This document shows, piece after piece, positions 53,600 through 56,907 of a stretch of 64,000 nucleotides of DNA (positions within the stretch are counted from its first letter, which is position 1; each line of letters opens with the position of its first letter). The position numbers and the translations under genes are program-made. The DNA comes from Candidatus Nealsonbacteria bacterium. Its GTDB lineage: Bacteria; Patescibacteriota; Minisyncoccia; Minisyncoccales; JANBVM01. The DNA is taken from contig CP061210.1 in the NCBI GenBank assembly GCA_026016225.1, forward strand, positions 258,000-321,999, written 5' to 3'. The notes beneath the pieces are model-generated. The model did no database searches, was not told the DNA's origin, and saw only the letters and a program-made list of their open reading frames with translations.

Positions 53600-54046
53600 A
53601 TGAAGATAAACATTGAAACCAAAAACATAACACTGAATCGGGCTATAGAAGATTTTATTAAAGAAAAAATAAATTCCCTTGAAAAATTTATAAAAGTGTT
53701 ATATAACGGAAAATATAAAAGTCCTTCCTCTGGTAAGGCAAAACCAGCACTTGTAGCATGGGTAGAGATTGGAAAAGAAACACTGCATCATAAGAGAGGA
53801 CCATTTTTTCGAGCCGAATGCCAAATAAGATTTTCAGGAAAGAGTATAAGAGCAGAAGCTATTTCAAAAGATTTAAGATTAGCAATTACGGAAGTAAAAG
53901 ATGAACTGCAGATAGGACTTAAAAAGCAAAAAGAAAAAATGATTTCAAAGGAAAAAAGAAAAAGTAGAGTTCTTAAAAAAAGAATGAAAATATCTCCCCA
54001 GGCAAGATTTGATCAGAAGGGGAGAACATTAGAAGAAGGTATTTAA
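53600..54046 (+). CDS. hpf: Ribosome hibernation/RaiA-HPF family protein with a K-rich tail
   Basis: MKINIETKNITLNRAIEDFIKEKINSLEKF is a typical S30AE N-terminus. Confidence 0.8.
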   Translation: MKINIETKNITLNRAIEDFIKEKINSLEKFIKVLYNGKYKSPSSGKAKPALVAWVEIGKETLHHKRGPFFRAECQIRFSGKSIRAEAISKDLRLAITEVKDELQIGLKKQKEKMISKEKRKSRVLKKRMKISPQARFDQKGRTLEEGI

Positions 54047-54080: not shown

Positions 54081-54110
54081 TCTCAACAAAAATTGTTGAG
54101 ACAGTTTTTC
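54081..54110 (+). terminator. Hairpin TCTCAACA/TGTTGAGA followed by a T-run (hpf terminator or attenuator)
   Basis: Read directly. Confidence 0.5.
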
Positions 54111-54137
54111 AGCATTTCCTATTAGAAAATGCTGAAA
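54107..54137 (+). promoter_or_regulatory. Perfect 11-bp stem that sequesters the first ATG of the AdoMetDC ORF
   Basis: TTTCAGCATTT (54107-17) pairs with AAATGCTGAAA (54127-37), 9-nt loop. ATG at 54129. Confidence 0.5.
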
Positions 54138-54560
54138 GATAAAGCGGTTGATAGAAAAATGATTAAAAAAACAAAGAGATCCATACAATGGGTCAATCAA
54201 TGGGTCAATGGAAAAAAACAAAAATATGCCGGTATTCACATAGTTGCCGAATTTTGGGGAAGCAAAATCATAGAAGACTCAAAAGAAATTGAGAAGATTT
54301 TAATTACAGCTGCTGAAAAAGGGGGAAATACTCCTTTAGAAGTAACCACTCATAAATTTTTACCCCAGGGTATAACCGGGGTTGTTTTATTAGCTGAAAG
54401 CCATATTGCTCTTCATGCTTGGCCCGAATATAATTATTTAGCAATAGATATTTTTACCTGCGGGGAGAAGGCTTTTCCAGATAAATCACTAAACTATTTA
54501 AGAAAAAAATTTAATCCCAAAAAAGTTGAAATAAAAAAAATAAAAAGAGGAACAATATGA
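54129..54560 (+). CDS. speH: Pyruvoyl-dependent S-adenosylmethionine decarboxylase proenzyme (SpeH/SpeD class 1)
   Basis: HIVAEFWG...VVLLAESHIALHAWPE..AIDIFTCG. The true start is uncertain because of an unusual ~30-aa N-terminal extension. Confidence 0.85.
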   Translation: MLKDKAVDRKMIKKTKRSIQWVNQWVNGKKQKYAGIHIVAEFWGSKIIEDSKEIEKILITAAEKGGNTPLEVTTHKFLPQGITGVVLLAESHIALHAWPEYNYLAIDIFTCGEKAFPDKSLNYLRKKFNPKKVEIKKIKRGTI

Positions 54561-54919
54561 AAGAAAATCAATCGAAAATTTATGGACAGGAATTGATTAT
54601 GGACCTTTATGACTGTGACCCAAAGATTTTAAGGTCAAAGAAGAAAATCTTAGAATATTCAAATAGGATTTGTAAACTGATTAAAGTTAAAAAATACGGC
54701 AGAGCAATCATCAAAAGATTTGGAACAGGTTCTATAGCTGGCTTTTCTTTGGTTCAGTTAATAGAAACCAGTTTAGTCTCTGGTCATTTTTCCGAACTGT
54801 GGGATAGGGCGTTTATCAATATTTTTTCTTGTAAGTTATTTAACGATAAAAAAACTAAGGACTTTACTAAAAAATTCTTTAAAGCAAAAAAAATTAAAAG
54901 TAGAACAATTATTCGTTGA
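54557..54919 (+). CDS. Divergent AdoMetDC-fold paralog (ES to TS at the processing site)
   Basis: YGQELIMDLYDCD...LVQLIETSLVSGHFSE...FINIFSC aligns with the SpeH fold. ATGA overlap with speH. Confidence 0.65.
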   Translation: MKENQSKIYGQELIMDLYDCDPKILRSKKKILEYSNRICKLIKVKKYGRAIIKRFGTGSIAGFSLVQLIETSLVSGHFSELWDRAFINIFSCKLFNDKKTKDFTKKFFKAKKIKSRTIIR

Positions 54920-54923
54920 AGAC

Positions 54924-55781
54924 ATGAAAAAATGGTTTTTTGAAAAAGGGCTTCCCAATATCGTTCAAGATTCTAAAATTGGTTGGAAACTGAAAAAAAG
55001 AATTTATTCTGGAAAAAGTAAATATCAGAAAATTGAAATTTTAGATACCTTCGCTTTAGGAAGGATTTTTGTTTTAGATGGTATTGTTCAATTGTCAGAA
55101 AAATATGAATTTATTTATCATGAAATGATTTCCCATCTGCCTTTATTTTATCACCCAAATCCTGAAAGAATTTTAATTATAGGAGGAGGAGATGGTGGCG
55201 TTCTGCGTGAAGTTTTAAAACATTCTTTAAAAGAAATTTTTTGGGTGGAGTTGGATTCAGAAGTAGTGGAAATCTCAAAAAAACATCTTTCATTTTTAGG
55301 TATAAAGAATTCTTTGAAACAAAAGAAAGTAAAACTATTTTTTGGAGATGGAGTGAGTTTTGTTAAAAAATTCAAAGACTTTTTTGATGTAATAATTGTT
55401 GACTCTACAGATCCGGCAGGTCCTTCTCTTCCTTTATTTCAAAAAAGATTTTATCAGAATAGCTTTTTGGCTTTAAAAAAAGAAGGAATTCTTATTACCC
55501 AAAGTGGAAATTTTTTAGACCAACTTTCAGAAATCAAGACCGTGATTAAAAATCTAACCCCTTCTTTTCCTTATGTAAAAGTGCATAGAATATTTACTCC
55601 TGATTATCAGGGTTCGGATTTTAGTTTCACTTTAGCTTCTAAAAAGATAAACCTGGAAGGTTTTAATATTAAAAAGATAGAAAAGAGATATAAAAAAATT
55701 AAGGGTTTAAAATATTACTCTCCTAAAATACATTTAGCTTCAGGAATTCTACCTAAATTTTATAAAGAAAAACTGGAATGA
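54924..55781 (+). CDS. speE: Spermidine synthase-type aminopropyltransferase
   Basis: IIGGGDGGVLREVLKH, VDSTDPAGP. Confidence 0.9.
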   Translation: MKKWFFEKGLPNIVQDSKIGWKLKKRIYSGKSKYQKIEILDTFALGRIFVLDGIVQLSEKYEFIYHEMISHLPLFYHPNPERILIIGGGDGGVLREVLKHSLKEIFWVELDSEVVEISKKHLSFLGIKNSLKQKKVKLFFGDGVSFVKKFKDFFDVIIVDSTDPAGPSLPLFQKRFYQNSFLALKKEGILITQSGNFLDQLSEIKTVIKNLTPSFPYVKVHRIFTPDYQGSDFSFTLASKKINLEGFNIKKIEKRYKKIKGLKYYSPKIHLASGILPKFYKEKLE

Positions 55782-55782
55782 T

Positions 55783-56907
55783 ATGGAAAAATTTTTGAGA
55801 AAGCTTTACAAAAAATTTTTAATTTTTGACCAAAATTATTATTTTCGGGATGTTAAAACCTGGTTTGGGGTAGGGGAACTTAAATTAACTAAAAAAATTC
55901 TTAAAAAATTTTATGAAAATTATCAAAAAGTTTCCTTTTTGGAATTTTTAAGTGATGTTAAAGACATAATTTATTCTAAAAATGTTTTTGACTTCATTAT
56001 TAAAAATGCAGAGGATGATTGGGACCTTTGGTGTTATTTGAAATTTTTAGAGAAAGAAAAGATAGTTAAGGTTAAAAAAAATGGTAAAGTTTCAGTTTTT
56101 AAAAAAGATATCTTTAAGATAATACCTCGGCCCCAAAGCGAAAAGGAAATAAAAAGAAAAATTGAAAGAAAATTAAAAACAAAGATTAAAGAAAAAAAAC
56201 CGGTCACCTCTTTATTTAAAAAATTTCAATTCTTTAAGATAAAAGCTGAATGGGACCAGATGCCAATTTCTCAATCCTCAGCCATTTTCCTTGTTAAAAA
56301 AATATTAGAGAGACTACCCTTAAAAGGTAAGTTTTTATTTGTTGGAGACGATGATTTTATTTCAATACTTTTAAGTTTAGCTGAGCCTAAAATAGAATCT
56401 CTTGTTATTGATGCAGACAAAGAGCTGCTTTCCTGTATTGATGAGCTTTCTTTAAAATTTAATTTGAAAATTGAAACCAAGAAGTTTGACGTAAGGAAAC
56501 AAGAACTTTTAGGAGAAAAGTTTATTGGGTTTTTAACAAATCCTATTTATACTGAAGCTGGAGTAAAAGCCTTTGTGAAATTTGGAAAAAACCAATTAAA
56601 TAAAGATGGTGGAATAGGATTTTTGGAGTTAGGGGGTGGAGATATTGGAAATAGATTTTTGTTTTTGCAAGATTTCTTTACTAAAAATAACTTGATTATA
56701 GAAGAGTTGATTGTGAATAAAATTTATTATCCTTACGTTATGCTTCACAAAGAAGACAAGGAAATCACAAAAAGACTTTCTTTAATGATTGATAAAAAAA
56801 TTATTAAAAAATCTCCTAAGTTAGGAGCTGCTTTGTATATTTTTGAGTATCTGCCCTTCAAGCCAAAAAGAGTGAAGTTTAAAAAACCAATATATGCATA
56901 TATTTAA
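55783..56907 (+). CDS. DUF43-type aminopropyltransferase, BpsA-like (branched-chain polyamine synthase candidate)
   Basis: FVGDDDFISILLSL, LVIDADKELL, FDVRK..., TNPIYTEAG resemble the DUF43/BpsA family. Polyamine operon context. Confidence 0.6.
   Translation: MEKFLRKLYKKFLIFDQNYYFRDVKTWFGVGELKLTKKILKKFYENYQKVSFLEFLSDVKDIIYSKNVFDFIIKNAEDDWDLWCYLKFLEKEKIVKVKKNGKVSVFKKDIFKIIPRPQSEKEIKRKIERKLKTKIKEKKPVTSLFKKFQFFKIKAEWDQMPISQSSAIFLVKKILERLPLKGKFLFVGDDDFISILLSLAEPKIESLVIDADKELLSCIDELSLKFNLKIETKKFDVRKQELLGEKFIGFLTNPIYTEAGVKAFVKFGKNQLNKDGGIGFLELGGGDIGNRFLFLQDFFTKNNLIIEELIVNKIYYPYVMLHKEDKEITKRLSLMIDKKIIKKSPKLGAALYIFEYLPFKPKRVKFKKPIYAYI

Follow-up and report, generated by a model that had tools for sequence, protein, structure and literature searches.

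Class 1b S-adenosylmethionine decarboxylases (AdoMetDCs) have repeatedly evolved into pyruvoyl-dependent arginine decarboxylases (SpeDA) and, one time only, into ornithine decarboxylases (SpeDC), as described by Li et al. (J Biol Chem 2023; PMC10407285). Examples of SpeDC are OGG79367 of Ca. Kaiserbacteria, BAJ63311 of Anaerolinea thermophila and WP_011448617 of Methanospirillum hungatei, together with the C-terminal domains of the fusion proteins of Ca. Omnitrophica OLB16 and D. phosphitoxidans (PMC10407285). The central residues diagnostic of SpeDC are Gln, Thr, Phe and Tyr, a signature that distinguishes ornithine decarboxylases (ODCs) from arginine decarboxylases (ADCs), and a conserved Pro is found in bona fide AdoMetDC only (PMC10407285). 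The Ser of the IETS motif in the D. phosphitoxidans SpeD-SpeDC fusion is S229, and the S229A exchange abolishes ODC activity; in the characterised fusion either domain is active when the other is inactivated (PMC10407285). Here we describe a 64,000-nt stretch of the Ca. Nealsonbacteria contig CP061210.1 (the window), in which a speD gene (gene 1) overlaps a divergent paralog (gene 2). Judged from its sequence, gene 2 probably encodes SpeDC, an AdoMetDC-derived pyruvoyl-dependent L-ornithine decarboxylase.

Gene 1 (54129-54560, plus strand, 143 aa) and gene 2 (54557-54919, plus strand, 120 aa) have the ATGA at 54557-54560 in common. This overlap was described in a first-pass annotation made from the letters alone, and the strings it quoted from the two proteins, LLAESHIALHAWPE and LIETSLVSGHFSE, are both present. 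Its assignment of both to the AdoMetDC family also holds, as PF02675 (AdoMet_dc) matches gene 1 with 124.5 bits and gene 2 with 60.2 bits, each above the gathering cut-off of 25 bits. Gene 1 is a canonical class 1b AdoMetDC proenzyme. It scores 130.3 bits against TIGR03330, the NCBIfam equivalog for Bacillus-type AdoMetDC (cut-off 75.65 bits), matches T. maritima AdoMetDC at E 6e-26 and carries the conserved Pro within HAWPE, so that both marks of a bona fide class 1b AdoMetDC are present. Its predicted cleavage site is Glu90|Ser91, followed by His96, Trp-Pro-Glu at 98-100 and Cys111. Gene 2 reaches 27.6 bits against TIGR03330 and thus lacks the first of these marks. What is shown here for gene 2 is its domain, fold, conserved catalytic triad, signature, clade and genomic context, and its assignment as SpeDC is predicted from these.

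Predicted cleavage site, signature and clade of gene 2

The predicted cleavage site was located by phmmer against T. maritima AdoMetDC (1TLU/1VR7), by BLASTP of gene 1 against gene 2, and by MAFFT alignments of 19 and 76 sequences. The three methods concordantly place Ser72, His77 and Cys92 of gene 2 under S63, H68 and C83 of the T. maritima enzyme, and LIETSLVSGH pairs gaplessly with LLAESHIALH in every alignment. Gene 1, gene 2 and the T. maritima enzyme share a Ser-His spacing of 5 and a Ser-Cys spacing of 20. All three residues are invariant in the 76-sequence alignment, for which the mean column identity is 31%. Thr71 of gene 2 pairs with the Glu preceding the scissile bond (P1). The predicted self-cleavage site Thr71-Ser72 lies at 54767-54772 on the plus strand (codons ACC AGT), with Ser72, the counterpart of S229 in the D. 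phosphitoxidans fusion, as the predicted pyruvoyl precursor. The segment from His77 (CAT, 54785-54787) to Cys92 (TGT, 54830-54832) spans 54785-54832 of the same strand and includes Phe78 and Phe86, which occupy SpeDC diagnostic positions 3 and 4.

The first-pass annotation had instead set Thr opposite the Ser that becomes the pyruvoyl group, with the His shifted. This came about because Glu was aligned to Glu, which moved the register by one residue. According to the alignments above, Thr71 is a hallmark residue of SpeDC that adjoins an intact Ser, and no substitution for that Ser. Since gene 2 keeps the Ser, His and Cys of processing, it is not a Thr-site variant, and it does not resemble the catalytically dead prozyme that had also been suggested; what stands is the general idea of an AdoMetDC beside a paralog of changed function. 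Thr as the nucleophile was considered separately and rejected, as it would disrupt the Ser-His and Ser-Cys spacing kept in all three alignments.

The AdoMetDC fold, which the first-pass annotation had assumed for gene 2, is recovered in an AlphaFold 2 model built from the 76-sequence alignment (mean predicted local distance difference test score 94.9). The model superposes on T. maritima AdoMetDC (1VR7/1TLU) with a template modelling (TM) score of 0.84 and a root-mean-square deviation of 1.7 Å in a Foldseek search, and Aquifex AdoMetDC (TM 0.79) is also among its best matches in solved structures. Thr71-Ser72 lies at the turn joining strands 62-69 and 72-79 of the model, as the AdoMetDC cleavage site does.

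The motif Q67-x3-T71-S72-x4-H77-F78 of gene 2 is the published SpeDC signature, with diagnostic positions that were deduced from the family consensus and from Fig. S5 of Li et al. read by optical character recognition (OCR). The Pro is absent, and HFSEL replaces H-x-W-P-E. The stretch FSLVQLIETSLVSGHF, residues 63-78 of gene 2, recurs without change in the ODC domain of the characterised Ca. Omnitrophica OLB16 fusion, as the motif of the latter is given in the OCR-read supplementary alignment. An exhaustive HMMER search with gene 2 returned 980 cluster representatives at E <= 1e-3, and the close homologues number more than 470, mostly from Patescibacteria. The best 150 of the 980 representatives give the core consensus Y-S-x-x-Q-L-I-E-T-S-x-I-x-G-H-F...A-Y-I-D-I-F-S-C. 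Thr precedes the Ser in 130 of 140 representatives and Phe follows the His in 114 of 140; the fourth diagnostic position is Tyr in 100 and Phe in 23. Pfam bit scores run continuously across the class and do not separate SpeD from SpeDC, so copies were classed by sequence.

In a maximum-likelihood tree of 128 domain sequences with SH-aLRT support values, gene 2 is one of 104 rows that form a clade with SH-aLRT 98. This clade takes in every sequence of the Q-x3-TS type, the C-terminal domains of SpeD-SpeDC fusions and the SpeE-fused domains described below. It also has homologues from Methanoculleus, Methanocorpusculum and Methanospirillum, all related to organisms with a characterised SpeDC, Methanospirillum being the genus of one of them (PMC10407285); the homologue of Methanospirillum lacunae is 39% identical to gene 2 (E 1e-28). 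Gene 1 groups with the canonical copies and with the N-terminal domains of SpeD-SpeDC fusions in the other clade, which is of the ES/WPE type (support 97). A single contig scan returned mostly Methanomassiliicoccales and Methanomicrobia, including M. lacunae; M. hungatei, A. thermophila and D. phosphitoxidans were absent from its matches, and a cluster look-up of ten representatives picked by length found none under a characterised accession. The ADC of pelagiphage HTVC201P and the characterised phage ODCs were left out of the tree. Against a phage collection, tblastn with gene 2 gave zero matches, and with the phage-like representative P0145 two weak matches only, in unannotated records.

Genome content and the probable substrate

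The source genome, whose best matches are Patescibacteria, consists of one contig of 661 kb and is 95.9% complete. It has exactly two PF02675 genes and one canonical speE. Matches to PF02784, PF01276 and PF01862, which cover other ODCs and ADCs of the pyridoxal phosphate (PLP)-dependent and the PdaD-type pyruvoyl kinds, were absent from it, as were matches to PF00491 (agmatinase/arginase) and PF04371 (agmatine deiminase). Two SpeD homologues in a genome with no other ODC or ADC and no agmatine enzymes lead to the prediction of an ODC. From such a genomic pattern Li et al. expected an ODC and not an ADC, and they went on to confirm this (PMC10407285).

Some of our observations weigh against this assignment. 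Gene 2 has Phe86 (in AFINIFSC) and not Tyr at diagnostic position 4; the change is conservative, and Phe is found there in 79 of the 119 closest homologues. The P1 residue is Ser in 83 of these 119 and Thr in 33. Taken together, the prevalence of Ser at P1 and the Phe at position 4 indicate that the subfamily is a derived branch. Characterised SpeDC proteins stand in the tree by same-genus homologues as proxies. We found no arginase, arginine deiminase or ornithine carbamoyltransferase in the source genome, so that ornithine would have to be taken up. Arginine is required anyway for protein synthesis. In addition, the SpeDC clade has an ADC among its characterised members, that of HTVC201P (PMC10407285).

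These points also raise the question of whether gene 2 might be a SpeDA-like pyruvoyl-dependent L-arginine decarboxylase, the agmatine from which could be aminopropylated by SpeE. Such a shift has precedent, as AdoMetDC gave rise to ADC several times and one ADC, the HTVC201P enzyme, is placed within the SpeDC clade (PMC10407285); the lack of a visible ornithine route in a cell that must have arginine available, and the departure of the subfamily at two signature positions, are in line with it. We nevertheless consider an ADC improbable. Gene 2 bears the Gln, Thr and Phe of the signature that separates ODC from ADC (PMC10407285), and about 15 characterised bacterial and archaeal members with that signature are all inactive on arginine. 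Moreover, agmatine or aminopropylagmatine would be a dead end here because PF00491 and PF04371 were not found in this nearly complete, single-contig genome.

A second, weak Spermine_synth-like match (48 bits) was found outside the window, at 70655-71077 of the source contig (C1), within an open frame of 511 aa. This frame may encode a membrane-fused spermidine-synthase-like protein.

Gene order, singletons and fusions among relatives

We compared gene 2 with its counterparts in 301 sampled genomes of its class. Among the genomes with both the gene-2 type and a second copy, the sequence of the second copy was read in seven and is canonical in each, with ESH...HTWPE (HTYPE in G208). Five genomes have the gene-2 type as their sole AdoMet_dc gene, and SpeE was not found there. 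A search of the same five for downstream enzymes found no deoxyhypusine-synthase-like gene and only one clear match to the saccharopine dehydrogenase family.

Two further kinds of paralog were noticed. The first, with the pattern I-I/V-D-F-S-H-x-S-I-H-T-F, has Phe at P1, lacks WPE and lies beside a canonical speD in three genomes, two of the same order and one of the same class. The second, Q-F-I-[MT]-T-S-N-x-T-I-H-T-L-D, falls inside the SpeDC clade. The loci of these two types are L105 (G047), L107 (G282) and L100 (G181); L089 (G001), L103 (G048) and L101 (G181).

The singletons bear on whether gene 2 could be simply another AdoMetDC that has diverged, or an enzyme that decarboxylates both AdoMet and ornithine. 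It does have the Pfam domain and the catalytic triad in common with AdoMetDC, one phage protein of the ODC clade has been reported as a bona fide AdoMetDC, and at two loci (L086, L087) speE comes directly after a homologue with 66% identity to gene 2, and speD is absent from the 64-kb contig. We regard such an activity as very improbable. The TIGR03330 score is far below the cut-off, the Pro found in every bona fide AdoMetDC is missing (PMC10407285), and characterised proteins with the signature did not complement E. coli speD. The singleton gene-2 type cannot serve as AdoMetDC in the five genomes above because they show no SpeE. The neighbours at L086 and L087 include an intein-containing RtcB and DUF763.

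The two nearest relatives (L083, L085) have the order speDC-speD-speE with gaps of about 70-120 nt. This reversed, gapped order makes the ATGA coupling a local feature and not a family trait, so that the translational coupling noted in the first-pass annotation applies to this locus and does not extend to its nearest relatives. Both neighbourhoods have murB and secA in common with the window, and L083 has hpf in addition; at L083 a GNAT acetyltransferase and a small open reading frame occupy the place of the BpsA-like gene described below.

Gene 2 could also be imagined to support gene 1 in a regulatory or structural role, as a prozyme-like subunit or as one half of an obligate heterodimer. 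The ATGA overlap, the existence of SpeD-SpeDC fusion proteins and the dimeric nature of class 1b enzymes, some of whose fused C-terminal domains (V. vadensis) have decayed to inactive partners, would fit a partner. The changed order in the nearest relatives does not fit it, and neither do the other genomes in which the gene-2 type stands by itself or apart from speD. The Ser, His and Cys of processing, which a dead prozyme has lost, are invariant across the family, and each domain of the characterised fusion remains active when its partner domain is inactivated (PMC10407285). We therefore hold a partner role for gene 2 to be scarcely probable at all.

The SpeDC-type domain is also found fused to other proteins of the pathway. 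Fusions to SpeD occur, and Pfam confirmed SpeDC-SpeE fusions (P0132, P0269) as well as SpeE-SpeDC fusions (P0161, P0177, P0186); the genomes with SpeDC-type/SpeE fusions are G240, G079 and G132. Li et al. describe SpeD-SpeDC fusions, and SpeE fusions were not noticed there (PMC10407285). The SpeDC-SpeE order is resembled by human spermine synthase with its AdoMetDC-like N-terminal domain, and this protein was also among the Foldseek matches of the gene 2 model. Fusions to both SpeD and SpeE, the latter in both orders, tie the domain to the spermidine pathway.

There is a small chance that the Patescibacterial subfamily, with Ser or Thr at P1 and Phe in place of Tyr, has shifted again, for example to arginine, or that it works in a complex with SpeD and SpeE. 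A further substrate shift is conceivable because the genome shows no ornithine route, and a complex is hinted at by the natural SpeD-SpeDC, SpeDC-SpeE and SpeE-SpeDC fusions. If true, such a complex would channel putrescine to spermidine and, via the BpsA-like enzyme, to longer or branched polyamines in an ultra-small and probably non-thermophilic bacterium.

The gene cluster, its proposed route and its closest counterparts

Downstream of gene 2, speE (54924-55781, plus strand, 285 aa) starts 4 nt past the speDC stop codon and encodes a spermidine synthase (polyamine aminopropyltransferase). It matches PF01564 with 189 bits and passes NF002010 (295 bits versus 260) and TIGR00417 (271 bits versus 249.55). 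The cluster is closed by a gene for a BpsA-like aminopropyltransferase (55783-56907, plus strand, 374 aa), after which secA follows. The BpsA-like protein has a PF01861 (BpsA_C) match of 84 bits, shows weak matches (E ~1e-5) to the N4-bis(aminopropyl)spermidine synthases 5XNC and 6J27 and retains the GDDD motif. The family is present in three of the 301 same-class genomes. The C-terminus of the protein is basic; in a 2026 review, an acidic C-terminal cluster is described as the aminopropyl carrier (PMC12979288). We judge the cluster to be a speD-speDC-speE(-bpsA-like) polyamine operon.

The first gene of this tight plus-strand cluster in the window is hpf (53600-54046). A terminator scan and RNA folding were applied to the leader between hpf and speD (54081-54137, plus strand). 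The scan found a terminator-like hairpin at 54081-54101, with a 9-bp stem and then a T run, and directly after it a perfect 11-bp hairpin (54107-54117 with 54127-54137) encloses the speD ATG. The leader RNA folds at -25.7 kcal/mol (z = -3.87), and none of 200 shuffles folds equally well. No clear promoter was seen in the interval from hpf to gene 1. Gene 1 is extended by about 30 residues at its N-terminus, and within this extension lies a 12-nt tandem duplication (54186-54209, CAATGGGTCAAT twice) that encodes QWVNQWVN upstream of the conserved AdoMetDC core.

A possible route can be proposed for the operon. The gene 2 proenzyme would cleave itself between Thr71 and Ser72, leaving residues 1-71 as the beta chain and a 49-residue alpha chain that starts with the pyruvoyl group formed from Ser72. 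His77 and Cys92 would act in processing and catalysis, like H68 and C83 of T. maritima AdoMetDC. The pyruvoyl group would then form a Schiff base with the alpha-amino group of L-ornithine, and putrescine would be released. Gene 1 would supply decarboxylated AdoMet, with which SpeE would aminopropylate putrescine to spermidine, and the BpsA-like enzyme may lengthen spermidine by more aminopropyl groups. We infer from homology and context that gene 2 cleaves itself, takes ornithine as its substrate and lacks AdoMetDC activity.

With SpeDC assigned to gene 2, a genome of 661 kb would make spermidine from ornithine by three small genes without a PLP-dependent decarboxylase. Such a three-gene route agrees with the view of Li et al. 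that PLP is spared where pyruvoyl enzymes are used (PMC10407285). The assignment would also correct a likely database mislabel, as public records give close homologues the name 'S-adenosylmethionine decarboxylase'. No new principle is involved: the family, its signature, the cluster type and the occurrence in the candidate phyla radiation were all published in 2023, when speD/speDC/speE clusters and many SpeDC homologues were described from the bacterial candidate phyla radiation (PMC10407285). The ornithine source and the BpsA-like gene at the end of the operon may still be worth study.

Among known systems, the trypanosomatid prozyme (5TVM) resembles gene 2 as an AdoMetDC paralog encoded alongside the active enzyme. 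It differs in belonging to class 2, in the loss of both processing and catalysis and in acting solely as an activator, whereas gene 2 keeps all catalytic residues and its type is found without AdoMetDC elsewhere, as in the five singleton genomes.

The crenarchaeal arginine decarboxylase, which was reportedly traced to AdoMetDC by Giles and Graham in 2008, is closer in kind. This enzyme and SpeDA share with gene 2 an AdoMetDC duplication, a shift to a basic amino acid and retained pyruvoyl chemistry. The analogy, drawn in the first-pass annotation, is thus of the right kind, but the signature of gene 2 is that of the SpeDC ornithine decarboxylases and not of arginine decarboxylases. SpeDA stays close to AdoMetDC in sequence and is without the Gln/Thr/Phe/Tyr signature. 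Genomes with SpeDA have agmatinase or agmatine deiminase (SpeB or AguA/AguB), neither of which was found here with PF00491 and PF04371.

The class 1b AdoMetDC of T. maritima (TM0655, SpeD/SpeH; 1TLU, 1VR7) has the same fold, the same His/Cys spacing and a processing site in a beta-turn, as predicted for gene 2. It differs in having Glu at P1 where gene 2 has Thr, and H-x-W-P-E where gene 2 has H-F-S-E-L, and the identity is about 23%.

The closest counterparts of gene 2 are the SpeDC enzymes. They differ from it in the Tyr at position 4, where gene 2 has Phe, and in the Thr at P1, which is often Ser in the nearest subfamily of gene 2. The arrangement also differs from that of the SpeDC examples, as gene 2 overlaps speD and is followed by speE and the BpsA-like gene. 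Like gene 2, SpeDC enzymes have about 120 aa, the class 1b fold, the Ser/His/Cys triad and Q-x3-T-S-x4-H-F. They likewise occur in speD/speDC/speE clusters, in genomes without PLP-dependent ODC or ADC or agmatine-converting enzymes, and the 16-residue core of the OLB16 ODC domain recurs unchanged in gene 2.

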